Positions 3,781-39,182 of a stretch of 64,000 nt of DNA are shown piece after piece. How positions within the stretch are numbered: the first letter of the stretch is position 1; each line of letters begins with the position of its first letter. The translations under genes were made by a program, and so were the position numbers. The stretch spans positions 89,144-153,143 of the forward strand of contig JABWCP010000001.1 in assembly GCA_013360215.1 (NCBI GenBank). The letters are read 5' to 3'. Source of the DNA: a bacterium. Lineage in GTDB: Bacteria > CLD3 > SB21. A model generated the notes under the pieces. It made no database searches, was not told the DNA's origin, and saw only the letters and a list, made by a program, of their open reading frames with translations.

Positions 3781-5847
3781 ATGAAACTTTTCACGAAAAC
3801 TTTAACAGCAGTTTGTTTATTGATGCTTAGCTGGACATTTCCAGGTATGGCACAAAATGAAATGATTGACGAAGACGGTGTTGTTGCAGATGTGCGTGAG
3901 AAATATTTGGCCGATTCCAAATCGGTCCTTATATACAACGGTAATCGTGAAATTCCCGAAGGACGCACGATCAAAAGCGACATTTTACTGCTCAACGGCG
4001 ACCTTATTATTGCCGGTACTGTGGAAGGTAAAATTGTCGTTTCCAATGGAAATATCATCATGCGCGAAACCGGTTCGGTCACTCGTGATGCTGTCAGTAT
4101 CAACGGCCGCGTCGAAACGGTTAATTCCGATCAGATTGCAGGCAACATTCTGCAGGTAAAGTCCTCTCAGCGCTCAACGAATAAACAAGATATCGCCGCA
4201 AAGCAAGAATCTAATTTTTCAGCCGATGAATTTACAGCAGATGAAACATCAAGCGAAGCAACAGCTTACACTCCATCCGTCAAGTCGAATAGTTATCAAG
4301 AAAATGATCCCGAGGAATTAAACGATGATGAAACCTCCGTAACACCACCTACTGTCCAGCGTAAGGACGGTGCGCGGGTATATGACTATAAAAACAAACG
4401 TAAGAATAAAAGTATTACCCCGTATGTCGAAGTGCCACCTGTGGTAGAAGCTCCTAACGCGGACAACATGACCGAAGCGGATTGGAAGCGGTTCAATCGC
4501 GAGATGGAAAAGTTTAATCGTAAAATGGAAAAATTTAACCGCAAAATGGCACGGATGAATGAAACCGTCGAAAAAGATCTGCCGGAATACGAATATAACT
4601 ATACTCCCCAGACGGATGAAGACGACAATGAAGACGAAGATCGTTCGCACAGCGCTTCGTTTGTACGGGTGGATAATGTGCCTCGCCGTAATGAAGATCG
4701 TACAAGTCCGCGCTATTATTCACGCAATAATTATTGGGACAATCATCAGGAAAAACTTCGTAATACATCCTTCGTTCTTTTTGACTACAATCGTGTAGAC
4801 GGTCTTTATATCGGCGGCAAAATAGATCGTGACCATCAGATATATGATAACAAACCGTTTCAAATATATGGTGAAGCCGGTTATGCTTTCGGACCTAAAG
4901 ATTTCCATTACCGCCTTGGCCTGGATAAAATCTGGGGTGCGGAATACCGATTTACTTTAGGCGGCGAAGTACACGATCTTACGACGACAAATGATAATTG
5001 GATCGTCGGTCAGATGGAAAACGCCATGAATTCCATGCTGCTAAAAATAGACAATCGAGATTATTTTCGTACACGCGGTTTTAGTTTCCAAGCTCAGCAA
5101 AATCTGAACAGTCAATTCAAAATAAGCGTTGCATACAAAGTTGATGACTACTCGTCCGCATCCAATAATGTTAATTGGGCGCTTTTTCGGAGTAAAAAAA
5201 TTGACTTCCGAACAAACCCTATGATTGATGAAGGTCGCATGAACAGCGTTGTTGTACGTGCTGAACTCAATACGCGCGGATGGGTCTATAATAATCGCAA
5301 GTACAGCAAACGTGTAGGATGGGATATTTACGGCGAAGCCGAGCGTAGCCGCGATGAGTGGAATTCCAATTTTGATTTTTCTCGCTACGTTCTGAGCATC
5401 GCACGCTACCAACCGCTGAGCCGTTACGAAAATCTGGATATGCGCCTGATGTTGGGATCGGTGACCGGCACTGTCCCCGCTCAGAAAATGTTTCACCTCG
5501 GCGGCATCTCCACCTTACGCGGTCATGATTATAAAGCGATGTCGGGAAATCAAATGGCATTGGCTAATGTCGAATACCGCATCAGTTCCGGTGCTCTGAA
5601 AAATGATCGCATTTTCCCCATTCACCCGTTTAGTGCCATTTTATTTGCCGACGCCGGTTATGCATGGAATAATACGATTTATTCCATTCGCGAATTGGCT
5701 CGCGGAACCAATCTGCGCGATATACAAACCGACCTCGGCGTAGGTATTGGCGATGAAAATGACCTGTTCCGATTTGATATTGCCAAATCAGTAAGCGAAA
5801 AAGGCAGTCCTTACAAATTTGCATTCCGCGTGAATTACATTTTCTGA
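3781..5847 (+). CDS. Omp85/BamA-superfamily outer-membrane beta-barrel protein with an N-terminal bactofilin-like beta-helix region and heptad repeats (no POTRA detected)
   Basis: Signal peptide (MKLFTKTLTAVCLLMLSWTFPGMAQ). N-terminal GxIxVxNG repeats (DLIIAGTVEGKIVVSNGNIIMRETGSV) typical of polymer-forming cytoskeletal/bactofilin folds. Acidic linker and K/R-rich NR(E/K)MEKF repeats. C-terminal barrel carries the Omp85 signature FHLGGISTLRGHDY and a terminal aromatic (RVNYIF). Confidence 0.6.
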   Translation: MKLFTKTLTAVCLLMLSWTFPGMAQNEMIDEDGVVADVREKYLADSKSVLIYNGNREIPEGRTIKSDILLLNGDLIIAGTVEGKIVVSNGNIIMRETGSVTRDAVSINGRVETVNSDQIAGNILQVKSSQRSTNKQDIAAKQESNFSADEFTADETSSEATAYTPSVKSNSYQENDPEELNDDETSVTPPTVQRKDGARVYDYKNKRKNKSITPYVEVPPVVEAPNADNMTEADWKRFNREMEKFNRKMEKFNRKMARMNETVEKDLPEYEYNYTPQTDEDDNEDEDRSHSASFVRVDNVPRRNEDRTSPRYYSRNNYWDNHQEKLRNTSFVLFDYNRVDGLYIGGKIDRDHQIYDNKPFQIYGEAGYAFGPKDFHYRLGLDKIWGAEYRFTLGGEVHDLTTTNDNWIVGQMENAMNSMLLKIDNRDYFRTRGFSFQAQQNLNSQFKISVAYKVDDYSSASNNVNWALFRSKKIDFRTNPMIDEGRMNSVVVRAELNTRGWVYNNRKYSKRVGWDIYGEAERSRDEWNSNFDFSRYVLSIARYQPLSRYENLDMRLMLGSVTGTVPAQKMFHLGGISTLRGHDYKAMSGNQMALANVEYRISSGALKNDRIFPIHPFSAILFADAGYAWNNTIYSIRELARGTNLRDIQTDLGVGIGDENDLFRFDIAKSVSEKGSPYKFAFRVNYIF
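4495..4557 (+). repeat. Three consecutive imperfect 21-nt in-frame tandem repeats, encoding NREMEKF / NRKMEKF / NRKMARM
   Basis: Units aatcgcgagatggaaaagttt / aatcgtaaaatggaaaaattt / aaccgcaaaatggcacggatg read directly from the sequence, inside the Omp85-like CDS. Confidence 0.8.
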
Positions 5848-5870
5848 TTTGATACAAACTTATCGTACAA

Positions 5871-5900
5871 CCCCGCTTCGTCATCCGATGCGGGGTTTTT
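5871..5900 (+). terminator. Rho-independent terminator after the Omp85-like gene
   Basis: CCCCGC..GCGGGG stem followed by TTTTTATTTT. Confidence 0.75.
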
Positions 5901-5985
5901 ATTTTACATGCATTATCAGGCTTGAATGAAAATATCCTTTAAGGTATATTGTTCAGATTTTTATGAACTTACTATTATTTTTATG

Positions 5986-7149
5986 GCATTTCGTTTAGCT
6001 AATCGTTTTGAAGAATTGCCCGTACATGCTTTTGCCGAGGTGGATCGCCTCAAACGCGAAGCCATTGCCCAAGGAAAAGACGTTATAGATTTGGGTGTAG
6101 GTGACCCCGATGTTCCCACCCCACAACCTATCATAGATGCTTGCACCAAGGCGCTACAAAAACCGGCCAACCACCGATACCCCTACCAAGCCGGTTCAAT
6201 GCGTTTTAGGGAAAGTGTTTCGGCTTTTATGAAAAGACGATACGATGTAACGGTAGATCCTCAACGCAATATCGTTCCTTTGATCGGTTCCAAAGAAGGT
6301 ATAGCCCATTTTCCGATCGCTTTTGTAAATCCGGGTGAAACCGTCATTGCACCGGATCCTGGTTATCCGGCCTATGTGACGGGAACTAAATTAGCCGGCG
6401 GCGTGCTCCATTCGATACCGTTATTAGCAAAAAATCGTTTTCTGATGCCGCTCAATGAAATCCCTGCCGATGTCGTAAAACGTGCACGATTGATGTTTTT
6501 CAATTATCCCAACAACCCGACTACCGGTTGGGCGGATCGAAGTGATTTCGAATCCATCGCTCAGTTCTGTAAAACTAACGACATTATTGCTGCTCATGAC
6601 GCGGCATATCAGGAACTTTTCTTCGAAGAAGCACCACCCAGTCTGATGCAAACAACATGCGGTCTTGACGGCGGCATCGAATTCCATTCGCTGTCTAAAA
6701 CTTTTAACATGACCGGATGGCGCGTCGGATTTGCCGTTGGCGAACCTTCCTTGATCGCCGGACTGTCCAGACTCAAAGCCAACATAGATACCGGTTTATT
6801 CTTAGCGTTACAAGAGGCGGCCGCGTTTGCATTGGATCATTGCGAAGAATTTACGAAACCTATGATCGAATTATATAGACGCCGTAAAGATACGGTAGTG
6901 CAAGGGCTCAATGCGGCCGGATTCAAAAGTCATCATGGCAAAGCAACCATTTACGTATGGACAGAAGTGCCCGGCGGTTCAGATTCAATGACCTTTACTA
7001 AACAATTATTGGATAAAACAGGAGTCGTTGTAACACCCGGTTCGGCGCTCGGTCAGTCCAGCGGATCGTACTTTCGCATTGCGCTGACACAGTCCGAAGA
7101 ACGTCTCTCGGAAGCCGTGCGGCGTATGGCGGCTTTTGCTAAAGCGTAA
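5986..7149 (+). CDS. Class I pyridoxal-phosphate-dependent aminotransferase (LL-diaminopimelate/aspartate aminotransferase-like)
   Basis: Start chosen at MAFRLANRFEELPVHAF. Fold-type I aminotransferase motifs (DLGVGDPD, GSKEGIAH, NYPNNPTG, SLSKTFNMTGWRVG with the PLP-binding Lys). Confidence 0.7.
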   Translation, partial: AFRLANRFEELPVHAFAEVDRLKREAIAQGKDVIDLGVGDPDVPTPQPIIDACTKALQKPANHRYPYQAGSMRFRESVSAFMKRRYDVTVDPQRNIVPLIGSKEGIAHFPIAFVNPGETVIAPDPGYPAYVTGTKLAGGVLHSIPLLAKNRFLMPLNEIPADVVKRARLMFFNYPNNPTTGWADRSDFESIAQFCKTNDIIAAHDAAYQELFFEEAPPSLMQTTCGLDGGIEFHSLSKTFNMTGWRVGFAVGEPSLIAGLSRLKANIDTGLFLALQEAAAFALDHCEEFTKPMIELYRRRKDTVVQGLNAAGFKSHHGKATIYVWTEVPGGSDSMTFTKQLLDKTGVVVTPGSALGQSSGSYFRIALTQSEERLSEAVRRMAAFAKA

Positions 7150-7150
7150 C

Positions 7151-7525
7151 ATGAAAAATAACGATAAAATCCGACTCGTCAATCTGATCATTTATGCTCA
7201 TCATGGTGCACATGAAGAGGAGCGGCGCTTAGGTCAGCGCTTTGAAATCGATGTTGAACTTGGACTTGATTTCCAACCGGCGGCGCTCGCCGATGATTTG
7301 CATCTGAGCGTGGACTACGGCACCGTGTATCAGCGCATTCACACTGTCGTCACGGAAAAGAAATATTACCTGATTGAGGCGGTCGCTGAAAATATCGCGC
7401 AGCGACTACTTAATGATTTCCCGATACAGGTCGTCACAGTCTGTGTCCGTAAACCGAGTGTTCCCATTCACGGTTCCTTGGATCATGTGGAAGTTGAAAT
7501 CACCCGTGAAAGAAAAACCACATGA
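7151..7525 (+). CDS. folB: Dihydroneopterin aldolase
   Basis: IRLVNLIIYAHHGAHEEERRLGQRFEIDVEL is the FolB signature. Size is about 120 aa. Confidence 0.8.
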   Translation: MKNNDKIRLVNLIIYAHHGAHEEERRLGQRFEIDVELGLDFQPAALADDLHLSVDYGTVYQRIHTVVTEKKYYLIEAVAENIAQRLLNDFPIQVVTVCVRKPSVPIHGSLDHVEVEITRERKTT

Positions 7526-8064
7526 AAAGTAAAGTACTGCTCAGCTTAGGCTCCAACATAGGTGATCGGATGCAGCATCTTCGCGAAGCTGTTGATCTAA
7601 TGAGCCGATTTGCCGGCATTACACAGATCGCATCCATTTATGAAACCGAGCCGGTTAGCCCGATCATGCAGGATAATTATTACAATACGGCTATGATCAT
7701 TGATACGGACTTAGATGCTCAGAGCCTCATGAAAAAACTATTAGACGTAGAAAAATCATTAGGTCGTGAAAGAACGATTCCCGGGAACGCACGCACGATT
7801 GATTTGGATATTATATTGTTTGGTGATCTCATTATGAATACGTCGGATACGGTCATCCCCCATCCGCGTTTTGCAGAGCGAAATTTTGTTCTCGTACCGT
7901 CGGCCGAAATTGCCGGGAATTGGCTTTGCCCGGTTCGGCACCTCACGATACAGGAAATTCTAAATCTATCCCGTGATACGCATCACGTACAATGCGCCGT
8001 TTCGCGGGACAATCCCGACGCCATCTTTCACTTATTACCGATGGGAGACGCGATTGGCCACTGA
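7522..8064 (+). CDS. folK: 2-amino-4-hydroxy-6-hydroxymethyldihydropteridine pyrophosphokinase (HPPK)
   Basis: LSLGSNIGDR, IDLDIILFGD and PHPRFAERNFVLVP motifs. Overlaps the folB stop (ATGA coupling). Confidence 0.85.
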   Translation: MKSKVLLSLGSNIGDRMQHLREAVDLMSRFAGITQIASIYETEPVSPIMQDNYYNTAMIIDTDLDAQSLMKKLLDVEKSLGRERTIPGNARTIDLDIILFGDLIMNTSDTVIPHPRFAERNFVLVPSAEIAGNWLCPVRHLTIQEILNLSRDTHHVQCAVSRDNPDAIFHLLPMGDAIGH

Positions 8065-28453: not shown

Positions 28454-30052
28454 TTACTCCTTCTCTATCGCACGCTTAGGCAAAACTTCATCAGACATAG
28501 CACTCATATAAACGAAGTAAGCGACAATAGCCGCATTGCGTTTCAAATCTAAAGGCTGGATATGATCATACATATCCATGTTGGTATGCCAAGTGATATT
28601 ACCATAATCCATGGGATCTTGAATGAACTGAAATCCGTTTAATCCGGCACTGATAAAAGACATGTGGTCCGTACTACCGGTACCTTTAAGTGAAATGGTT
28701 GATGCGCCCCAGGAGCGGAAAGGTTCCATCCATTGTCTAAAATAAGACTGCACATCTTCATGCCCTTGCAAATAAATGCCGCGGATTTGACCGCCGCCAT
28801 TGTCCATGTTAAAATAGACATTGAATTTTTCATACCCCGGTTTAGCGCCGGTCGAATCATATAAATGTTTATTAACATAACCTGCCGAGCCGAGTAAACC
28901 TTGCTCTTCTGCTGACCAAAGGCCTATTTTGATGGTGCGACGGGGTTGAAAACCGATAGCTTTGAGAATACGAATAGCCTCCATCATTACGGAAACGCCG
29001 GCGGCATTATCCGTCGCTCCGGTGCTGGAATGCCAAGAATCCAGGTGCGCCCCGATCATCACAGTTTCATCTTTGCGATCACTTCCACTCCAAGTCCCTA
29101 TCGTATTATACGCTTTCAAATCTTTATCACGCCACTCGACTTGGAGATCACATTCCATGATCACTTCTTTACCGCTTTTGATCAATTCGATCAGCTGATT
29201 GTACTGCTCCGCAGAAATAGCAATCTGCGGTGCTACCGATGGCGGATTAGGATCCCACGCTTTGGGATTCGTATTACTGAACGGATCGGATTCGTCCACA
29301 AGCGGCATGGATGCACCCATAACACGCACTATGCCCGAATGAGGTGTACCGCCGCGAAAACTAAACGATCCTCCGTCCACGATAAGCGCCGGTTGTTGAT
29401 TATTAATCCATGTAAATATCCTCTGCCTTTCAATAAAAGCCGAGAATCGAGGCGACTTACGAAAACTCTGACGAAAAGATTCTGCTCGTCCTTCATTTTT
29501 ACCGGCATTGGACATGGTTAATAATTCACTATCGCTCCAGCGTTTAGCATCCGCTTCAAAATCTTCTTCAATCTTTACCTTATCGCCTAAAAGAACAATG
29601 GCATTCTTGAGCTTGTTTGAATATTTCTTCTGAATGTCCTCGAGTTTAGTTTCGTTGATATACAAGATTTTTGATCGTACCGTACCGCGCGTAGCGGGTG
29701 ACCAAGCTTTGGGATAAGCGATGAGTGGTATCGCATACGGCGCTACAATGCCGGCACGAAAACTTTTCATATCCCATCCGCGACCAAATTCTCCCCACGG
29801 CTCGACTTCCGCCGATAAACCCATTTTTTCAAGCGCCTCACGTGTCCAATCGTTAGCGGCCGCTAATCCTTTAGAATTAGTTAAACGTGCACCGATCACA
29901 TTTGTAAGAACATTCAGAGTTTGCAGAGCTTGCGAGCGCTCTATCGCCTCGGTTTTTATGGCTTCGGCGGCGGCCGAATCACCTTTTTCCGCTTGTGCAA
30001 ACAGCGAAAGACTACAGCACAAGATTACAATCAACATACGATAAAAATGCAT
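28454..30052 (-). CDS. M28 family zinc aminopeptidase with PA domain
   Basis: Signal peptide. M28 metal-binding motifs (HLDSW, DNAAG, SAEEQGLLGS, HTNMD). Confidence 0.8.
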   Translation of the reverse strand: MHFYRMLIVILCCSLSLFAQAEKGDSAAAEAIKTEAIERSQALQTLNVLTNVIGARLTNSKGLAAANDWTREALEKMGLSAEVEPWGEFGRGWDMKSFRAGIVAPYAIPLIAYPKAWSPATRGTVRSKILYINETKLEDIQKKYSNKLKNAIVLLGDKVKIEEDFEADAKRWSDSELLTMSNAGKNEGRAESFRQSFRKSPRFSAFIERQRIFTWINNQQPALIVDGGSFSFRGGTPHSGIVRVMGASMPLVDESDPFSNTNPKAWDPNPPSVAPQIAISAEQYNQLIELIKSGKEVIMECDLQVEWRDKDLKAYNTIGTWSGSDRKDETVMIGAHLDSWHSSTGATDNAAGVSVMMEAIRILKAIGFQPRRTIKIGLWSAEEQGLLGSAGYVNKHLYDSTGAKPGYEKFNVYFNMDNGGGQIRGIYLQGHEDVQSYFRQWMEPFRSWGASTISLKGTGSTDHMSFISAGLNGFQFIQDPMDYGNITWHTNMDMYDHIQPLDLKRNAAIVAYFVYMSAMSDEVLPKRAIEKE

Positions 30053-30077
30053 GTTACCTCACAGGATAGTTTTATGT

Positions 30078-30893
30078 TTATTGATTTTTGGATTCAGAAG
30101 TCGTCAGTATTTCGATAATCGTTTCATGTTTTTTAATACGCGCTATGGTAAGTGCCGTGCGCCCTTGCACATCTTTGGCTTTCAAATCAACGCCACGATT
30201 AACTAATAACCGAACAGCCTCCATTCGATTATAGTTAACCGCAAGCATCAATACGGTTTCTCCGTTGGGTGTTCTTGCTTCAAGATTAGCTCCTTTGTCC
30301 AGTAAAGCCTCAATGATCGGCGCTTTTCCTTTGATAGCGGCCTGCATCAGCGGTGTAAATGAGAACCGATCCATTGCATTAGGATCCGCTCCGCGATCTA
30401 GTAAAAGACGTACAACATCCAAACGATCCAGTAACACGGCAAAGGTAAGCGCGCTTTTACCGTCTTTGTCACGCCCATTTACATCGGCACCTGCGGCTAT
30501 GAGATCGGACACAAGTTCAGCCGGTGCATAACGCACACCGTACATCAATGCTGTTTGCCCATTATTGGCAACGGCCGTCGGATCAGCGCCCTTGCGTAAT
30601 AGTGAACGAACAATACCGATATGCCCTTCACGCGAAGCGATCATCAGCGGCGTAGGGTCATTGGACTCGCCTTGCGAAACCGAATCCTTATGATTGGTAA
30701 ACCTCATGTTTGGATTCATCCCGGCCTGAAGAAACATATTGGTCAGAATAAGATCGCCTTTTCGAATTCGCGACAAAAATTCCTGATCGTTGTATGCAAT
30801 TCCAAGGCGCATCAAATCGCGTTGGGCGCTGTCTTTTGGGTTTGAACAGGAAACGATGACTAAACACATCGCAAGCATAACTATCGTACGCAT
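30078..30893 (-). CDS. Ankyrin-repeat lipoprotein
   Basis: Lipobox (LAMCLVIVSCSNP) followed by about 6 ankyrin repeats (TPLM.A...G....V..LL..GAD.N). Start placed at MRTIVML to avoid overlap with the upstream gene. Confidence 0.7.
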   Translation of the reverse strand: MRTIVMLAMCLVIVSCSNPKDSAQRDLMRLGIAYNDQEFLSRIRKGDLILTNMFLQAGMNPNMRFTNHKDSVSQGESNDPTPLMIASREGHIGIVRSLLRKGADPTAVANNGQTALMYGVRYAPAELVSDLIAAGADVNGRDKDGKSALTFAVLLDRLDVVRLLLDRGADPNAMDRFSFTPLMQAAIKGKAPIIEALLDKGANLEARTPNGETVLMLAVNYNRMEAVRLLVNRGVDLKAKDVQGRTALTIARIKKHETIIEILTTSESKNQ

Positions 30894-30909
30894 AATAACT
30901 ACATTCCTT

Positions 30910-31401
30910 TTAACCGCCATAATTCCAACCGGTGTCCCGTAATAAAATAGGTTTAAAATCACGACGTACTTTAGCATTAATGATGGAGGCTACTATGATC
31001 GAATGATCACCCCGTTCGATACGATCGGTAACCGTACATTCGATATACGCGTACGCTTCATCCAATATCGGTGCGCCGCTTTGATCCGTATCAAACGAAT
31101 ATCCATTGATCATCTGGCCGTTTACTTCAATGTTTTTAAAAAATTTTCCGGCAATCGATTTTTGATCTTCTGATAAAATATTCAGTGCAAATGAATCGGT
31201 TTGACGTATCGCCTCATTGGCCCAACTGTCTTTGCGCAATCCCAGCATGATCAGAGGCGGTTCAAAGGATGCCTGACTTACCCAAGTCACGGTTGAGGCG
31301 ACATACGGGCTTCCTTGGAAATCATGCTGCGCTTTGGCCGTCAAAATGAACATACCGTATTGGAAAAAACGTAATGCTTTTTTTTTATCTTCGTTGGTCA
31401 T
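30910..31401 (-). CDS. Flavin reductase-like FMN-binding domain protein
   Basis: 163 aa with flavin-reductase-domain similarity (FALNILSEDQ...AGKF, GDHSIIVASI). Confidence 0.65.
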   Translation of the reverse strand: MTNEDKKKALRFFQYGMFILTAKAQHDFQGSPYVASTVTWVSQASFEPPLIMLGLRKDSWANEAIRQTDSFALNILSEDQKSIAGKFFKNIEVNGQMINGYSFDTDQSGAPILDEAYAYIECTVTDRIERGDHSIIVASIINAKVRRDFKPILLRDTGWNYGG

Positions 31402-31409
31402 ATTAATGT

Positions 31410-32585
31410 TTATATCGTTTTGGTTAATTTACCGACAGTTTCTGTTATGCGTTTGATCGTATAGTCTATATGGTCCGGTGTGTTCCCGCGTCCAAGTCCA
31501 AATCGTAATGAGGCTTTCGCCAATTCTTTAGAAATGCCCATGCGCAGTAAAACATGCGAGGGTTCAGGGACGGCCGACGAACATGCCGATCCGGTGGACA
31601 CAGCAATATCTTTGAGCGCCATGATAAGGCCTTCGCCATCAATGTCCGGAATGCTGACATTGAGATTATTCGGAAGCCGACGGGAAAAATTGTCGTCTTT
31701 TTCAAAATCAGGACCATTTAACCGAATGCCTTTTATTGTTTGTTTTAAGCCACTCCATAGGCGCTCTCTAAGTACGGTATAATGTTTTTGGTTTTGTTGT
31801 AATTCATCAACGGAAAGGCGCGCCGCTTCGCCCATGCCCACGATACCCGGCACATTAAGTGTGCCGGAACGTCGCCCGTTTTCATGACCCCCTCCGTGTA
31901 AAAGAGCCGTGAGCTGAATACGGGGATTACGTTTTCGAATATACAGTGCGCCAACGCCTTTGGGACCATAAAACTTGTGTGCTGAAAGGGATAATAAATC
32001 AGCATTAAGGTTTTCTACGTGCACCGGGATTTTGCCAAGAGCTTGTACCGCATCGGTATGAAGAATAATACCTTTCTCACGTGTAATAGCGCCAATAGCT
32101 GCTATATCTTGAATCACGCCGGTTTCATTGTTGGCCAACATGACACTCACCAAAATCGTATCGCTTCGTATGGCGCTGACGATTTTTTGAGGATCCAATA
32201 AACCGTCTTGTGAAACCTCCAATACAGTGATTTCAAAACCGGCTTCTCGCAAATATTCACACGTATCCAATACACTGGCGTGTTCGGTCGAAACCGTGAT
32301 GATATGGCGTCCCTTGTTTTGAAACGTTTCGGCTATACCTTTGATTGCAAGATTATTAGCTTCCGTCGCACCGCTTGTAAATACTATTTCATCCTTGCTT
32401 GCCCCGATAGCCGTAGCGATGCGGATCCGCGCTTGTTCTACGGCTTCTTCGGCGATCCAACCGTATTGATGCGTTCTACTGGCGGCATTACCGTAATGCT
32501 CAGTTAAATATGGCATCATTTTTTGCAAAACGCGCGGGTCGAGCGGCGTCGTCGCATGGTGATCTAGATAGATCGGTTTTTTCAT
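31410..32585 (-). CDS. iscS: Cysteine desulfurase (NifS/IscS family)
   Basis: Class V aminotransferase fold with SAHKFYGPKGVGALYIRK (PLP Lys) and the active-site loop GSACSS. Confidence 0.85.
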   Translation of the reverse strand: MKKPIYLDHHATTPLDPRVLQKMMPYLTEHYGNAASRTHQYGWIAEEAVEQARIRIATAIGASKDEIVFTSGATEANNLAIKGIAETFQNKGRHIITVSTEHASVLDTCEYLREAGFEITVLEVSQDGLLDPQKIVSAIRSDTILVSVMLANNETGVIQDIAAIGAITREKGIILHTDAVQALGKIPVHVENLNADLLSLSAHKFYGPKGVGALYIRKRNPRIQLTALLHGGGHENGRRSGTLNVPGIVGMGEAARLSVDELQQNQKHYTVLRERLWSGLKQTIKGIRLNGPDFEKDDNFSRRLPNNLNVSIPDIDGEGLIMALKDIAVSTGSACSSAVPEPSHVLLRMGISKELAKASLRFGLGRGNTPDHIDYTIKRITETVGKLTKTI

Positions 32586-32697: not shown

Positions 32698-33108
32698 ATG
32701 AAAAAAATTCTGACGTTTTTATTGTTCACGGGCGCAATTTCCGTTTACGCGCAGGACGTTTCAAAGCAACTTGAGCGCCTAGATCCGGGTACGGCCACGG
32801 CCAATCTGGATAACTTCGGTAAAACTCACAGTGAACAAATCACGGCAGCGCACCAAGCTCGTCTGGGCGAACTCATCAAGGCCGGTACGATCATTATTCG
32901 CCAAGACACTATGATCACCGCGGATAAACCGGTTAAAATCGCATTTAACTGGCCTGTTGCAAGCGGTCAAAATCTCAAAGATAAATCCATGGTCAAACGC
33001 GACCCGCAGATAATGACACTCTATCCCGCTAAAGATCCGAGCAACAAAGATATTCCACAGCGGTGGCAGGTCACTTACAAAGATGGCACAGTCAAAGCGA
33101 TACAATAA
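32698..33108 (+). CDS. Small secreted protein of unknown function
   Basis: 136 aa with signal peptide (MKKILTFLLFTGAISVYAQ). No recognisable motif. Confidence 0.5.
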   Translation: MKKILTFLLFTGAISVYAQDVSKQLERLDPGTATANLDNFGKTHSEQITAAHQARLGELIKAGTIIIRQDTMITADKPVKIAFNWPVASGQNLKDKSMVKRDPQIMTLYPAKDPSNKDIPQRWQVTYKDGTVKAIQ

Positions 33109-33193: not shown

Positions 33194-33388
33194 TTAGAAA
33201 TTTGTCTCAAGCCATTTTGCTGCAAAAGCGGCTTCATCCTCATGAGCGGGCATACGGACAAACCGTTCGTTGAATTTCCATGCACCGGTTTTGGGCGAAA
33301 TTGACGAATAAACAATCATAATCGTTTTCCAATTCGCATCGCGCTTTTGTTTATCCGTTTTTTCGCCAAACGTTTGTTTCTTGGCCAT
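33194..33388 (-). CDS. DUF4295-like Cys-less small basic protein
   Basis: 64 aa, MAKKQTFGEKTDKQKRDANWKTIMIV...SPKTGAWKFNERFV. Pattern resembles the MAKK...KSPKTGAY(S/T)FKE DUF4295 mini-proteins that sit beside rpmB/rpmG in Bacteroidota. Contains no Cys. Confidence 0.5.
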   Translation of the reverse strand: MAKKQTFGEKTDKQKRDANWKTIMIVYSSISPKTGAWKFNERFVRMPAHEDEAAFAAKWLETNF

Positions 33389-33419: not shown

Positions 33420-34640
33420 TTAATTCACTGCGCTCTCTTCCGCGGATTGGATTATCCACTCGGGAAACGGATCAACAAATCGCACCCAATCCGTATGATC
33501 GATTTTCATCTCTTCGTCCGTAAGCAAACACTTTTCAAATGCTTCGCTTAACGAGACTTTATCCATGTCTTTACCTATGAGGACGATTTCCTGACGACGA
33601 TCTCCGTATGGCGGGTGCATTTGTGCTTCGATATCTTGTATATACGCCGCATCGTCCGGCCATGAACGGCGATCTATCGCAGACCACCAAAAACCAGCCG
33701 GTTCATAGTTGCATGTACCGCCGGCTTGTTCCCAATGCCCCGCCCACTCCATGCGCGTCGCCAGCCAAAAATAACCCTTGGATCGAAGCACTCCGGGCCA
33801 CTCTGTATGCACCCATACCCAAAATCGTTCGGGATGAAATGGTTTTCTTGCGCGAAAGACAAAACTGGAAATACCGTATTCTTCCGTCTCCGGCGTATGT
33901 TCACCGCGCAATTCCTTAAGCCAGCCGGGAGCCGACGAAGCTTTATCAAAATCAAAAAGTCCCGTATTCAATATCTGCGTCAATGGCACATCACCGTATT
34001 TAGAAAAAACAATCTGCGCGTCAGGATTCAATCTTTGGCATACGGAAAACAAAACTTTTCTGGCCTCTTCACCGATCAGGTCTGTTTTGTTTACGATTAT
34101 GACATTGGCAAACTCAATTTGGTCTATCAACAAATCGGCGATCGAGCGCTCATCTTCCTCACCCAAAGCAATGTTTCGATCTATCAGTGAATCGCTGCCG
34201 CAATAGTCGTTAAAAAAATTATACCCGTCCACAACAGTAACCATCGTATCCAGTCTGGCGTAACGGGATAAACTTTCGCCCTGTTCATCTTCAAACGTAA
34301 ATGTTTCGGCAACCGGCAACGGTTCGGATATTCCGGTTGATTCGATCAACAGATAGTCAAATCGCCCTTCTTTGGCCAGGCGCGCTACTTCGACAAGAAG
34401 GTCTTCGCGCAATGTACAACAAATGCATCCGTTGGTCATTTCGATCAATTTTTCTTCTTTGCGACTTAAGGCGGCCTCACCGTTTTTGACGAGCGATGCA
34501 TCAATATTTACTTCGGACATATCATTGACGATTACCGCGACACGTTTACCTTCGCGGTTTTTCAAAATGTGATTGAGTAATGTCGTTTTTCCGGCGCCTA
34601 AAAATCCGGAAAGCACGGTGACTGGAAGTTTTTTAATCAT
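33420..34640 (-). CDS. COG0523-family GTPase (CobW/ZigA/YeiR-like putative zinc metallochaperone)
   Basis: Start at MIKKLPV. Walker A LSGFLGAGKTTLLNHIL. Canonical metal-binding GCICCTL (CxCC) motif. C-terminal CobW_C-like domain. Confidence 0.8.
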   Translation of the reverse strand: MIKKLPVTVLSGFLGAGKTTLLNHILKNREGKRVAVIVNDMSEVNIDASLVKNGEAALSRKEEKLIEMTNGCICCTLREDLLVEVARLAKEGRFDYLLIESTGISEPLPVAETFTFEDEQGESLSRYARLDTMVTVVDGYNFFNDYCGSDSLIDRNIALGEEDERSIADLLIDQIEFANVIIVNKTDLIGEEARKVLFSVCQRLNPDAQIVFSKYGDVPLTQILNTGLFDFDKASSAPGWLKELRGEHTPETEEYGISSFVFRARKPFHPERFWVWVHTEWPGVLRSKGYFWLATRMEWAGHWEQAGGTCNYEPAGFWWSAIDRRSWPDDAAYIQDIEAQMHPPYGDRRQEIVLIGKDMDKVSLSEAFEKCLLTDEEMKIDHTDWVRFVDPFPEWIIQSAEESAVN

Positions 34641-34800
34641 AAAAGCATCTCTAAAATAAGTGTAAATGAAGAATAAATCATCACTGGCCGGGTCACGGCA
34701 ATACATAACACCGATCTTTTGTGTAAGGCCAATGGAAAAGGAATAATGGAAAACCTCTGTTAGAAGTTTCCTCATTTAAGGAATAAATGTTAATGTGTAT

Positions 34801-35157
34801 TTAGACGAACAATGGCGGGGCTCGAGCGGAACGACGTGGTAAAATACTTTCAAGAAACCAAACATGGCTGTGGCCTGTGTTCTCATTGATACTAGACACA
34901 ATAACGAGTGACAACGAATCAACACGATCGTGCCCCAATGCAAATTGATGAGCCAAACAATACGGATGTTGGGCGTCTTCCCCTGTAGAATAGCCGATAT
35001 CGCTGCTGGCAATTTCAACCGTATGAACCGATATGCCGCACTGATCCGTATGCAGCATCGGTAGCAGGCTACAAACGATCAGATAAAAAACAATGTATAA
35101 ATATCGTAACAAAGAGTGCACGTTCCGCTTTCCGATTAGAACTAATAAAGGCGTCAC
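34801..35157 (-). CDS. Small membrane-anchored Cys/His-motif protein (paralog of 38263..38592)
   Basis: About 118 aa. N-terminal hydrophobic helix then LLPMLHTD...C...H...CLAHQF...GH.H motifs shared with its paralog. Probable GTG start. Confidence 0.5.
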   Translation of the reverse strand: MTPLLVLIGKRNVHSLLRYLYIVFYLIVCSLLPMLHTDQCGISVHTVEIASSDIGYSTGEDAQHPYCLAHQFALGHDRVDSLSLVIVSSINENTGHSHVWFLESILPRRSARAPPLFV

Positions 35158-35190
35158 ATGATAAGTAACGCCTTGTATTTATGAGAAACC

Positions 35191-35745
35191 TTATTGAATC
35201 CGAATCGGAAACTCCACCTCAATATCCGTTTCGCCGGGTGTAGATGTACCGTTTTTGACTCCGGGCTGGTGTTTAAGCGTCACATGCGCTTCGCCGCTTG
35301 AGGCCGCACCGGTAATCCAACGCGTCAGTAAACCGACGGGAATATTATTATCATCCACATCGCGATAGTTTACGACAAGGTTAACATCGTGGCCATGAAA
35401 GAAAAACATATGATCATTACGTTCATCATACACTTCATTGGAAATCGTATCGGCGGGTTCTTCCGTTTCGTTTAATAAAACGATCGTAGCGTGATAGGTT
35501 TTGTTTGCGGCTAATTTAATTGTATCAAACTGTACCGGATCCGCGCCGCCTTCACCGTCCAAATCGCGAAACGAGGCCGTAACCGTATTCGCCGCATTCG
35601 AAGTATCTACAAACTTAATCACGACCGATGTGATGAGTTCTTCCGGATTGGTTTCCTTATCGTCTTTTTCGCATCCGCTGAATACAAATAATGACATCAG
35701 TATAGTTACAGTTAATAACGCTGTTTTTGAGAAAACACGTGTCAT
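35191..35745 (-). CDS. His-motif lipoprotein, receptor-associated
   Basis: Lipobox (LFVFSGCEKD). Contains HMFFFHGHD. Immediately downstream of the TonB-dependent receptor on the same strand. Confidence 0.55.
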   Translation of the reverse strand: MTRVFSKTALLTVTILMSLFVFSGCEKDDKETNPEELITSVVIKFVDTSNAANTVTASFRDLDGEGGADPVQFDTIKLAANKTYHATIVLLNETEEPADTISNEVYDERNDHMFFFHGHDVNLVVNYRDVDDNNIPVGLLTRWITGAASSGEAHVTLKHQPGVKNGTSTPGETDIEVEFPIRIQ

Positions 35746-35785: not shown

Positions 35786-38167
35786 CTAAAATTCTAGGTT
35801 ACCAAACGGAATCTGAACACGCAGCACAATATTGCGACCGGGATCATCTATATAATATCGAAACCGGCTCAGATAATTCGCGTACCGCGTATTGAATACA
35901 TTATTGATGGCCAGACTGATCGTGATCGGCGACCAGGATGTATGCCATTCGCACCCAACTTCAAAATCAACCGTCACATAGCCGGGTGGCGGAGTGACCG
36001 TAACCGAGTCGGCATCGTTTACAAACGTCTCGGCACCTTCAGGTACATGCGATTGACGGCGATACCATGTTATCCCGATATCCACATACGGTTCATGGAT
36101 CGTACCCGCATCTGAAAAATGCCAATGCATAAGTCCACTAAATCGGTCGGAAGGCATATAAATCAGGGGCTCATCTTTTTTCAAATCGCGACCGCGCACG
36201 ATAGACCATCCGGCATCAAGACGCACAATGTCAAGGGCATGCCATTGGATCTGACCGTCAATACCGGTCAATTGAGCTTCGGTCTGCGCATAACGAAACG
36301 TCGGAAAAGCCCCCCTGATCGTGAGCGTAGGTTTACGCGATGGATACAAATGAATATAGTTATCCATGCGGTTTACAAACACACTCACATCGCCGTTGAT
36401 CTTTTCACTGTTATGATGCAAAGTGATATCCGTACTGTAGCTTTTTTCTACACCCATCGCAGGATCGCCGATTTCGTATTGTGCCGTGCCATGGTGAACT
36501 CCGTTACTATATAACTCATTTACTCCCGGCGGTCGCCACGCCGTACCGGCATTGATCCCGATTGACCAATATTCCGCAAAACGCCGGTTCACACCGACGG
36601 CCGCCGAAGTACTGCGATAAACATGGTCTTCATTTTCATTTACACCCAACTTCAACTGTTGTTGTGCTGTAAAGGAAGCATCCAGCCATCGTTGGTCATA
36701 GCGTAACCCCGCCTCTGCTGACCAATCATCTTGCACCCATTTTTCGATCCAGTACAGACCGGCATTATATGTACGGAAACTGGGAATCAGACGTATCGCT
36801 TGATTGACATTGCGCTGCCGCATGACATTGACGCCGATGGTTCCGGCAAAGTCCCCGATCGGACGATGACGCCATCGTACATCGGCGGTGTAGGTGTACA
36901 GCGAAAGATCAAAGGAAGGTTTTTTTAAATCCTCGGCCGGTGTACCGAGCGGCTTATGCGAATCAAACTCCTGACGATGATTGCGTTGCCAACCGCCCTG
37001 AAATTCGAAACGATCACCGGCATCCGTTTGACGGTGCACACGAGCTGATATCAGATCATGAGTGATTACCTGACGTGGATTTCCGATCGCGAAGGAAAAA
37101 TCATCCTCGGTTAATGGAACACGGTTGCGTTTTATCGCAGCGATAAGATCGCTGGTATTCCCGATATGCGAACCTTTGTAGATACCAAGTTCCGTTCCAA
37201 AATGACTATAATACAATTGCGATTCCCAGCGATGGTTTCGAAATCCCACCGCCGCAGATCCGTTGAACTCCTGAAATCCGGAATTACCTATGACATAACG
37301 CGGTGTTTGAGCATTACCCGCCTTACGCCCGCTGACCTGTGCACGCCAACCAAAACCGGGTTTATTGGCAAGGCCCCCTTCGATTCGCAATGCTCCGGCC
37401 ATTTGGCGATTATTGGTAAAACCGTTGAGAGAGAGCTCGCCTCCGATTCCGGCATGTTCCGGTAACGGACTTGGCTCTACACGTATCACGCCGCCGATAG
37501 CACCTGCTCCGTATTCTAAACCCGAAGCGCCGCGTATCACCGTAATGCTTCCGGCCGCAAACGGATCTATTTCGGGTGCGTGTTCCCCTCCCCACTGCTG
37601 TCCTTCCTGCGTTACGCCGTCATTGAGCACGACGACGCGTTGGCTATGCAGGCCGCGCACTACCGGTTTGGCAATCGACGGACCGGTTTGGAGTAACGAG
37701 ACCCCCGGAACATCCTTTAGGGTTTCTCCCAGGGTTTGTCCGCGATGTTGATCCAGCTGCCCTTCATCCAGTGCCGTCACGGATTGATAGGAATCCATTA
37801 CATTATCCCGCTCCACGGTTACAGTTGAACCTTCGATCTGTAACGGATCCGGAGTTAATGTGATGTCCAATGTTATTGAACGATTGAGTTCGATCGTTTT
37901 TTTATAAATACCGTAACCGATGATCTGGGCCGTAACTTCATACGTACCGGCCTTGAGACCGCTGATCACATAATGACCGTGCGCATCCGTAATTGTTCCC
38001 TTTTTTAAGGCGGGAAAAAATACAGACACACCGGGTAATCCATCATGGGTATCTTTATCGTACACAGTTCCGCTGAGTTTGAATGTCTCACCGGGATTTT
38101 CTTCAGCAACAGCCGTCGAAAAACCAAATATGAGCATGACCCAAACCACAACGGAAGTACGATGCAT
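35786..38167 (-). CDS. TonB-dependent outer-membrane receptor (CarbopepD-reg N-domain plus plug plus barrel)
   Basis: Start at MHRTSVVVWVMLIFGFSTAVA signal peptide. SGTVYDKDTHDGLPGVSV carboxypeptidase-regulatory-like domain. Plug region (DEGQLDQHRGQTLGETLKDVPGV). Terminal aromatic residue. Confidence 0.8.
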   Translation of the reverse strand: MHRTSVVVWVMLIFGFSTAVAEENPGETFKLSGTVYDKDTHDGLPGVSVFFPALKKGTITDAHGHYVISGLKAGTYEVTAQIIGYGIYKKTIELNRSITLDITLTPDPLQIEGSTVTVERDNVMDSYQSVTALDEGQLDQHRGQTLGETLKDVPGVSLLQTGPSIAKPVVRGLHSQRVVVLNDGVTQEGQQWGGEHAPEIDPFAAGSITVIRGASGLEYGAGAIGGVIRVEPSPLPEHAGIGGELSLNGFTNNRQMAGALRIEGGLANKPGFGWRAQVSGRKAGNAQTPRYVIGNSGFQEFNGSAAVGFRNHRWESQLYYSHFGTELGIYKGSHIGNTSDLIAAIKRNRVPLTEDDFSFAIGNPRQVITHDLISARVHRQTDAGDRFEFQGGWQRNHRQEFDSHKPLGTPAEDLKKPSFDLSLYTYTADVRWRHRPIGDFAGTIGVNVMRQRNVNQAIRLIPSFRTYNAGLYWIEKWVQDDWSAEAGLRYDQRWLDASFTAQQQLKLGVNENEDHVYRSTSAAVGVNRRFAEYWSIGINAGTAWRPPGVNELYSNGVHHGTAQYEIGDPAMGVEKSYSTDITLHHNSEKINGDVSVFVNRMDNYIHLYPSRKPTLTIRGAFPTFRYAQTEAQLTGIDGQIQWHALDIVRLDAGWSIVRGRDLKKDEPLIYMPSDRFSGLMHWHFSDAGTIHEPYVDIGITWYRRQSHVPEGAETFVNDADSVTVTPPPGYVTVDFEVGCEWHTSWSPITISLAINNVFNTRYANYLSRFRYYIDDPGRNIVLRVQIPFGNLEF

Positions 38168-38262
38168 CGTTAAAATAGGCATGCATTTCCTTCGTGTAGA
38201 TCGCGGCAAACTAAATGTCGCCGGATACAATCATGAAACCAAAAGGGAGTTTTAAATGGAAA

Positions 38263-38592
38263 CTAGGAAATTACGGGAGGACCGCGACCGGCATGAACCT
38301 GATCAAGTGATGCGGTGTGTATCGGTGAGTAACAAACAATTTCAAATAACGGAATATAAACATGCGAAACGCCGTGAAATTGGACTAAACTATGTGATGC
38401 GCTGTACTGGTGCGCCAAACAAAAGTCCGCGTCATCCGATAAATGATGACCGTTTTCAACGTCGGTAATGATCGTTTGCGCAGCTCCGCTACAAGGCAAA
38501 CGATCCGTATGAAAAAACGGCAGCAGCATAACCAGCGGTACATACGCGATCAATATCAGGCGCGATAAAATATGTTTAGCCGGTTGCTTCAT
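38263..38592 (-). CDS. Small membrane-anchored Cys/His-motif protein (paralog of 34801..35157)
   Basis: 109 aa. N-terminal helix then LLPFFHTD...C...GHH...CLAHQY...H.VSH; aligns along its whole length with the 34801..35157 product. Confidence 0.5.
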   Translation of the reverse strand: MKQPAKHILSRLILIAYVPLVMLLPFFHTDRLPCSGAAQTIITDVENGHHLSDDADFCLAHQYSASHSLVQFHGVSHVYIPLFEIVCYSPIHTASLDQVHAGRGPPVIS

Positions 38593-38615
38593 AAAGTATG
38601 ATAAGATATCGTTAG

Positions 38616-39182
38616 TTATTTGTCAAGCGGTTTGACGTTGGCCGCTTCATCCAAAATATCAAACAGACGACGGAGCGTTTCGCTTGTTATAACGATAGGA
38701 TTTTCAGCTGTTGGTTTAGAGGTGATACTCGGGGACGCATCGGCGCTATCGGGTTGATTTTTGTTGGCATCCGGTATCACGTGCAGCTTAAAAATTGAAA
38801 GACCGATTCCGCCTTCAGCCATAAGTTCGTCTGACAAATGTGCTATAGCCGATATTTTGATGACATAGATACCATCTGTCAAAAGTTTTGCGGGAGTGGT
38901 AATGGCCGTTTCGTGATGTTGGCCATATCTGATTTTTCTGACACTTCCGGGTATCATCGAGGCGCGCCAGCATTCTTCGATGCGTTTTCTTCCGTTCTGG
39001 CTTTCTTCCGGTAAATACCGGCCTACCGTGATGGTAAAATAATCAATCATCATCGGTACATCCGCCACGGTGCTCCATTCGATTTCCCAATTCTCCTCAG
39101 GAACAGTCATACCGCGTTGCTGCGGCTTCTGTATGGCATCCTGAGGACGCACTTGTATAAAAAATCGTTCCATACCTACCAA
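38616..39182 (-). CDS. Hypothetical protein
   Basis: 188-aa ORF overlapping the upstream exonuclease gene by 7 nt. No recognisable motif. Confidence 0.45.
   Translation of the reverse strand: MVGMERFFIQVRPQDAIQKPQQRGMTVPEENWEIEWSTVADVPMMIDYFTITVGRYLPEESQNGRKRIEECWRASMIPGSVRKIRYGQHHETAITTPAKLLTDGIYVIKISAIAHLSDELMAEGGIGLSIFKLHVIPDANKNQPDSADASPSITSKPTAENPIVITSETLRRLFDILDEAANVKPLDK

Follow-up and report, generated by a model that had tools for sequence, protein, structure and literature searches.

Two small upstream reading frames with RAPP/RGPP tails in a metal-uptake locus: likely regulatory arrest peptides of the CruR/CutF kind

The window considered here is a 64,000-nucleotide (nt) stretch of contig JABWCP010000001.1 (assembly GCA_013360215.1, positions 89,144 to 153,143), from a bacterium placed by GTDB in Bacteria; CLD3; SB21. 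Between 33.4 and 38.6 kb its minus strand carries a set of metal-uptake genes together with two small open reading frames (ORFs), here called A and B. A preliminary description of the window placed A at 34801..35157 and B at 38263..38592, and both are there. The order of transcription is B, a TonB-dependent receptor, a lipoprotein, a hairpin, A, a COG0523 GTPase and a 64-amino-acid (aa) ORF. The two small proteins had been described as flanking the receptor-lipoprotein pair. In functional terms they do not, as each of them heads a downstream gene. Judged from sequence, each is an upstream ORF (uORF) ahead of metal-uptake genes, B before the receptor and A before the GTPase ZigA. Each uORF is co-oriented with the gene that follows it, and the synteny is conserved. 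The operons themselves are putative.

B is 109 aa long with orthologs of the same length, and would be the leader peptide of the receptor-lipoprotein operon. It is separated from the receptor gene by a spacer of 80 nt (38183..38262) that is moderately C-rich and G-poor and has an AAGGAA Shine-Dalgarno sequence at its end. The receptor is ZnuD-like and has 798 aa (35786..38182). It starts at ATG 38182; the TTG at 38230 given in the ORF list is over-extended, and the relatives are called at 798 aa. The lipoprotein partner of the receptor (35191..35745) has 184 aa. A terminator-like hairpin (35148..35174) lies 3' of its gene. A is next and would be the leader peptide of ZigA. Its longest ORF reaches GTG 35157, but the true start is probably GTG 35121, which makes a protein of 106 aa (34801..35121). 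The gene calls of its relatives P0004 and P0003 begin at the equivalent of GTG 35121 or later, and a 1-nt insertion in the related locus L004 throws the GTG 35157 start out of frame. A spacer of 160 nt (34641..34800), with a C-rich, G-poor stretch and a hairpin at 34749..34771, leads to the zinc metallochaperone GTPase ZigA (33420..34640; 406 aa). ZigA starts at ATG 34640; an ATG at 34775 reads ATA in the relatives, where ZigA also has 406 aa. The gaps of 80 nt from B to the receptor and 160 nt from A to ZigA are the same in all relatives.

These relatives are few. A was searched with phmmer against 1.84 billion representatives, and word-indexed searches were made with B and with a profile. 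They yielded no more than four close relatives, all of a single lineage. P0001 (97%) and P0002 (66%) are orthologs of B and have its length. P0004 (96%) and P0003 (83%) are orthologs of A. All four come from metagenome-assembled genomes with synteny identical to the window. A scan of Joint Genome Institute metagenome contigs for the A/B family found none. The family could not be extended further by sequence and is taken as six members: A, B and P0001-P0004. B has a ratio of nonsynonymous to synonymous substitution rates (dN/dS) of 0.17 against L001 and also against L004. This is purifying selection, so B is translated. Gene callers can overlook these ORFs: at L007 the ortholog of B was missed and a 70-aa antisense ORF (6654..6866) was given instead.

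A and B are paralogs, as had been proposed (BLASTP E=7e-9, 32% identity over 73 residues, A 10-80 against B 2-71). The further claim that they align end to end is only partly right. The N-terminal two thirds and the last seven residues align, but the stretch between them does not. Each begins with a hydrophobic segment, again as described before, with 19-residue Kyte-Doolittle maxima of 1.9 in A and 2.2 in B (2.18 at residue 8). In B the predicted helix covers about residues 8-27 (38512..38571) and is preceded by K2, K6 and R11. The AlphaFold model of B has a helix at 4-28 with a predicted local distance difference test score (pLDDT) of 70-79. Basic residues precede the segment in both proteins, and it resembles a signal anchor more than a signal peptide that would be cleaved.

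Two motifs follow. LPxxHTD comes after the helix and C(L/V)AHQ(F/Y) about 30 residues further on, and both are invariant in 6/6 family members. In B the second is CLAHQ (C58-Q62, 38407..38421), a candidate metal-binding CxxH. In A it is C67-Q71 in the numbering of the 118-aa ORF (34945..34959). The other Cys and His positions noticed earlier are less constant. A Cys just after HTD had been listed as a shared feature, but P0002 has Q at this position and the L004 ortholog has S. The distal His residues are likewise only partly conserved, as where SH becomes SQ in L004. The preliminary description had made its metal-handling proposal depend on conservation of these residues, and only one Cys and a few His are conserved, which counts against it in part.

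The most distinctive feature of both proteins is one that the preliminary description does not contain. A ends in R-A-P-P-L-F-V-stop and B in R-G-P-P-V-I-S-stop. The RAPP of A (CGA GCC CCG CCA) is at 34813..34824 and is kept in P0003 and P0004. The RGPP of B (R103-P106; CGC GGT CCT CCC) is at 38275..38286. The orthologs have RAPP, RGPP or RDPP, every time with three residues and then a stop; P0002 ends in RDPP-AIV. From the motif Cys to the Arg of RxPP is exactly 45 residues in 6/6 members, or 41 residues counted after CxxH. This distance is fixed even though the two paralogs do not align over the stretch that it spans. A six-frame search of ORFs of at least 50 codons finds an R(A/G)PP-type tail in 2/511 ORFs of the window, and these are A and B. 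Inside the window's long ORFs R[AG]PP has 0 occurrences in 21,607 residues.

RGPP and RAPP are arrest cores established by experiment (PMC12992588, PMC10951233). No tetrapeptides are more avoided in bacterial proteomes, and they are C-terminally enriched in small exported proteins whose genes precede those of TonB receptors (PMC12992588). In the survey by Fujiwara et al. (EMBO J 2025), RAPP/RGPP small uORFs before TonB receptors are reported to be universal in Gram-negative bacteria (PMC12992588). A and B have what defines this class: a C-terminal motif, fewer than 300 aa, a localisation signal and a co-oriented downstream gene. B, which ends in RGPP, also lies upstream of a TonB receptor. The survey used motif and annotation only, and neither the CxxH family nor the receptor-lipoprotein module nor a uORF before ZigA is described in it. 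Zinc, CobW, COG0523 and GTPase are not mentioned in its main text, and among the matches listed in our literature search none connects RAPP or arrest peptides to ZnuD or COG0523. We argue that A and B are likely to be regulatory arrest-peptide uORFs of the RAPP/RGPP type, similar to CruR and CutF, in a zinc-acquisition locus. Our confidence in the identity of the metal and in the downstream mechanism is lower than in this class assignment.

The genes downstream point to zinc. The receptor has Plug, barrel and CarboxypepD_reg domains. Its sole match in the PDB at E<=1e-10 is the meningococcal zinc receptor ZnuD (4RDR, E=2.5e-23). The NCBIfam ZnuD model scores 139 against a cutoff of 950, so we call the receptor ZnuD-like and not a ZnuD equivalog. 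The GTPase exceeds the ZigA equivalog cutoff (NF038288, 661.6 bits against 600). The lipoprotein has 487 homologs, mostly from Bacteroidota, and is named in some sources as a type 1 periplasmic binding fold superfamily protein. The suspected link to metal handling, drawn from the TonB receptor and COG0523 context, is supported by the ZnuD match, by the ZigA score and by the recurrence of analogous ORFs with the receptor across Bacteroidota. Zinc is probably the metal, given ZigA, the ZnuD-like receptor and the His-rich CxxH motif.

The recurrence was examined in 80 genome loci around lipoprotein homologs, about 1.05 Mb in all, from a scan seeded with an alignment of eight lipoprotein sequences. 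The receptor and the lipoprotein adjoin each other in 78/80 loci. Sixty-seven loci have enough upstream DNA, and 46 of these have an R[AG]PP ORF with a membrane helix and His/Cys directly upstream of the receptor. These uORFs are 100-150 aa long, mostly 105-115. Their tail is followed by 1-6 residues and they end 12-244 nt before the receptor. About 9 more loci have KGPP, KAPP or longer-tail variants. Across the sampled loci the R[AG]PP tail is found in 52/5,936 ORFs. The distance from the last Cys to the Arg is 44-49 residues in 45/46 of these uORFs. In their alignment a hydrophobic segment at the N terminus is directly followed by an invariant His, and a Cys motif and R.PP come after that; the mean column identity is 29%. 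The Cys motif is CxxC in many and HxC in others. Conservation across the set is limited to a His, the Cys and R.PP. These are motifs and not a domain. PF11162, the family of CruR, gives sub-threshold matches to 3/27 of the analogs (E ~0.05, about 14-15 bits against a cutoff of 23.7).

A uORF before ZigA is not specific to the window, since L017 and L018 carry one too. In L017 (2188..3808) the order is uORF, ZigA, receptor, lipoprotein. L018 resembles the window in having two uORFs, of which one precedes the receptor and the other ZigA. The second stands in a block (5032..7573) where a second lipoprotein paralog is followed by the second RGPP uORF and then by ZigA. As for the variant tails, the uORF before the receptor ends in NKGPP or LKAPP, not R[AG]PP, in L020, L046, L048, L059 and L061 (at about 5.2-5.6 kb), and likewise in L056 (3.4-3.7 kb) and L062 (4.2-4.6 kb). 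Most of these loci also have a conserved acidic ORF of about 108 aa (...EDSEEVEENL...YNRDEIREIANNM...) just upstream.

The closest characterised system is CruR (Bp2923, DUF2946/PF11162) of Bordetella pertussis, a copper-responsive uORF of the TonB transporter BfrG/CrtA (PMC9426467). CruR is exported and has a CXXC, 45 intervening residues whose spacing is functionally important, and a RAPP three residues from its C terminus (PMC9426467). It acts through copper-dependent relief of arrest and Rho-dependent termination (PMC9426467), and its arrest has been shown in vitro (PMC12992588). The likeness to A and B is extensive. A small protein that is exported, or for A and B predicted to be, comes first, in the case of B ahead of a TonB-dependent transporter. 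A metal motif lies about 45 residues before the RAPP at a conserved spacing, and the RAPP-type motif is three residues from the end. A long spacer follows (162 nt for CruR, 80 nt for B, 160 nt for A). There are differences too. A and B have no significant match to PF11162. They sit in a zinc context (ZnuD-like receptor, ZigA) while CruR is in a copper context (PepSY_TM). They are from a non-proteobacterial lineage that resembles the Fibrobacteres-Chlorobi-Bacteroidetes group. There are two copies in the one locus, and one of them is ahead of a gene for a cytoplasmic GTPase.

CutF of Rhodobacter capsulatus is a second case. Stalling on CutF controls translation of cutO by melting a stem-loop at its ribosome-binding site (10.1101/2025.02.05.636593; 10.1101/2022.11.11.516240). 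What it would share with A and B is export of the nascent chain, a Cys motif and a proline-rich stall site at the C terminus, and it acts as a transmembrane metal sensor for its downstream gene. It differs in that it is turned on by copper and governs a detoxification enzyme, and in the involvement of EF-P. Constrained folding at the A/B loci also shows no such effect of melting a stem-loop at the ribosome-binding site. ApdA, ApdP and SecM share the N-terminal targeting signal and the regulation of a downstream gene (PMC10951233, PMC7897499), but they monitor protein export, precede sec or yidC genes and have no metal motif. We think it likely, from the sequence features, that A and B are a CxxH variant of the CruR/RAPP-uORF kind, either by very remote homology or by convergence.

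If so, a mechanism can be proposed in the following way. The predicted signal-anchor helix would bring the nascent chain to the membrane. The ribosome would then arrest at R(A/G)P-P, where the motif is observed and the arrest is argued from experiments on ApdA, ApdP and CruR. During arrest the Cys/His motif would be 41-45 residues from the peptidyl-transferase centre, just beyond the exit tunnel. So exposed, it could bind a metal, probably Zn(II). Binding, or folding induced by it, would alter the duration of the arrest. Occupancy of the end of the uORF by the ribosome would in turn set expression downstream, with B acting on the receptor and lipoprotein and A acting on ZigA. By analogy we favour a direction where arrest persists and the downstream genes are on without metal, and where metal releases the arrest and turns them off. 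This direction is taken from CruR because both control uptake systems. One possible means, which we favour weakly, is that the stalled ribosome shields a C-rich, G-poor stretch where Rho would load. One can extend the scenario further. A and B would be the first zinc-responsive arrest leader peptides, gating both the receptor operon and ZigA, and the same device would be the standard post-transcriptional switch of the Bacteroidota receptor-lipoprotein module. Zinc would then be read, extracytoplasmically or cytoplasmically, by a nascent membrane-targeted CxxH/His peptide. We put this forward tentatively, as a serious possibility that falls a little short of being probable.

The spacers are compatible with Rho shielding of the CruR type, since C-rich, G-poor stretches come right after both uORF stops (34700..34815 and 38183..38275). 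The best 78-nt C/G ratio is 2.29 after A (99.7th percentile of the strand) and 1.58 after B (96th). The hairpin in the A spacer (34749..34771) has 9-10 bp and is conserved. In the minimum free energy (MFE) fold of the B spacer, AUUUCCU, which overlaps the last codons and the stop of B, is paired with the AGGAAAU of the receptor. Unmasking of the ribosome-binding site in the manner of SecM or CutF is nevertheless not the mechanism we favour, though it may still apply. The MFE is no lower than that of shuffles (z=0.29), and the AUUUCCU/AGGAAAU pairing is lost in L001. It must be noted that a separate hairpin around the start codon of the receptor (about 38145..38186) is kept in L001, where one base pair has changed on both sides (CG to UA). 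Independently of the uORF, this hairpin may limit how well the receptor is translated.

Transcription signals can also be read at the two uORFs. B is preceded by a sigma-70-like promoter match, TTGACA-17-TATCAT (38598..38626), which agrees at 11/12 positions. The preliminary description had proposed a related TGATAAG stretch before both starts. The heptamer is present at 35159-35165 and at 38599-38605, but it is not enriched, it has different roles at the two sites and it is unconserved at A. There are 11 copies in the window against 7.2 expected, and 10/100 shuffles reach 11. At B it is the -10 hexamer TATCAT of the promoter match on the coding strand, 5 nt before the ATG. At A it is in the loop of the 35148..35174 hairpin, and the relatives read TGGTAAG. 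We therefore reject a shared operator role for the heptamer, as it shows no enrichment, the A copy is an unconserved terminator loop and the box at B has no second copy in the window.

The B promoter block is well kept all the same. L001 has the same -35 element and the same 16-nt block ATATCTTATCATACTT despite a synonymous divergence (dS) of about 1.5, where synonymous sites are saturated. No Shine-Dalgarno sequence is found at the start of B (38590..38626; L001 730..780). The block may mean that the B mRNA is leaderless, that it holds an operator (Zur?), or both. The 16-nt block over the -10 of B has no second good copy in the window. We know of no Zur motif for the source lineage. The ORF directly upstream of B (38616..39182, minus strand, 185/188 aa) has no Pfam or NCBIfam match and is syntenic in all relatives, where it has 185 aa. 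Its stop overlaps the putative -35 element of B.

The hairpin 3' of the lipoprotein gene has the form AAGGCGTTAC-TTATCAT-GTGACGCCTT with a U-rich tail after it (dG -15.8 kcal/mol, z -4.5). It probably ends the receptor-lipoprotein transcript. If it terminates there, A and ZigA need either read-through or the weak promoter that overlaps it (TTCTCA-18-TATCAT, 9/12).

Several observations weigh against reading A and B as zinc-responsive arrest peptides. Every functional step rests on analogy. A has a dN/dS of 0.62, which is weak constraint. Pfam and NCBIfam scans of A and B give nothing at E<=1, DUF2946 and the NCBIfam small-protein models included. The motif in A and B is CxxH, C-(L/V)-A-H, and that of CruR is CXXC. 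With hhalign only a 22-residue tail of the A/B family aligns with the Bacteroidota uORFs, at 66% probability. It is because this covers the RxPP tail only that we claim a shared architecture and not homology. The AlphaFold model of B has a mean pLDDT of 41.9, with residues 28-109 below 50 and no confident fold beyond the membrane helix. This speaks for a nascent regulatory peptide, but only weakly, since the input alignment had five sequences. At the level of RNA, the Rho utilization (rut)-like composition of both spacers is only suggestive. When a ribosome footprint is forced to be unpaired, accessibility of the downstream ribosome-binding site is not raised in any of 5 loci. The covariation data are too shallow to argue for an RNA switch because the relatives are too similar. 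The A spacer has no compensatory pairs, and the double changes in the B spacer all come from one divergent sequence, L001. Finally, the sensed metal could be copper or another ion.

This last point deserves its own consideration. The same arrest architecture may sense copper, or some other metal, in place of zinc. The characterised relatives CruR and CutF are all copper-responsive, many of the Bacteroidota analogs have CxxC, and the receptor weakly matches the TonB-copper model (62.6 bits, far below cutoff). However, the gene downstream of A, and of the uORFs in L017 and L018, is the zinc metallochaperone equivalog ZigA. The solved copper transporter CrtA (PMC12914433) is not among the structural matches of the receptor, where ZnuD is the sole relative at E<=1e-10. 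There are no PepSY, PCuAC or Sco genes near the locus in the window or in the relatives' loci. The motif in A and B is a CxxH in His-rich surroundings and not a CXXC. We regard a metal other than zinc as unlikely.

The preliminary description had suggested another role, that the two proteins could be periplasmic metal-binding or redox (Cys/His) factors serving the receptor. They would then be stable, membrane-anchored, chaperone-like accessory proteins, and the prolines at the C terminus would be incidental. This fits the conserved CxAHQ and the several His on the predicted periplasmic side, and it fits the purifying selection on B. CutF too was once conjectured to be a copper chaperone (PMC9426467). 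It is also compatible with a regulatory role alongside. It leaves the fixed R(A/G)PP+3 tail and the 45-residue spacing without an explanation, though. The Bacteroidota analogs keep motifs alone and not a domain, and pLDDT is below 50 over the whole of residues 28-109. Even close relatives differ at the first Cys and at some of the distal His. The ORFs are always immediately upstream of another gene, and for A that gene encodes a cytoplasmic GTPase and not the receptor. The tail, the fixed spacing, the leader position and the poor conservation outside the motifs are instead characteristic of regulatory nascent peptides such as CruR and CutF (PMC9426467; 10.1101/2025.02.05.636593; PMC12992588). 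The accessory-factor role is thus not the best reading, and we consider it quite improbable.

It is very improbable that A and B monitor secretion or insertion in the way of SecM, ApdA and ApdP, freed from arrest by the pulling force of Sec or YidC alone with the Cys/His irrelevant: an N-terminal membrane-targeting helix with a RAPP-type tail is exactly the layout of monitoring substrates (PMC7897499, PMC10987492), but the downstream genes are for metal acquisition and not sec or yidC, and a Cys/His motif is kept at a fixed distance from the arrest site across very divergent sequences.

The rest of the neighbourhood can be described briefly. The 64-aa ORF after ZigA (33194..33388, minus strand) has a sub-threshold match to DUF4295 (E=0.0098, 16.1 bits where the cutoff is 27), and every relative has it at the same place. 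A small Bacteroidota protein may have this ORF as its zinc-limitation paralog. A block of genes on the minus strand (28454..32585) is conserved after ZigA and the 64-aa ORF in all relatives. It encodes a cysteine desulfurase-like aminotransferase, a flavin reductase, an ankyrin-repeat lipoprotein and an M28 (zinc) peptidase. On the opposite strand a 136-aa secreted ORF (32698..33108) lies between ZigA and this aminotransferase-M28 block.

Post-transcriptional sensing of a metal by a nascent peptide has been demonstrated by experiment for copper only, in CruR and CutF (PMC9426467; 10.1101/2025.02.05.636593). According to the authors of the CruR work, neither Cu nor Zn has a known riboswitch (PMC9426467). 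In the locus described here two copies of the candidate device head an outer-membrane receptor operon and the gene for the ZigA chaperone. They follow a rule that can be checked: a membrane helix, a His/Cys motif, R[AG]PP 44-49 residues further on, 1-6 residues and a stop. This rule finds dozens of small ORFs, unannotated or called hypothetical, before the widespread Bacteroidota receptor-lipoprotein module (46 of the sampled loci). Gene callers miss such ORFs or give them the wrong start, and the Pfam and NCBIfam models do not cover them. The Bacteroidota set provides natural variants of spacing and motif for experiments. If the argument holds, a zinc-linked CxxH variant would mean that nascent-peptide sensing covers a second metal and can act on a target in the cytoplasm.

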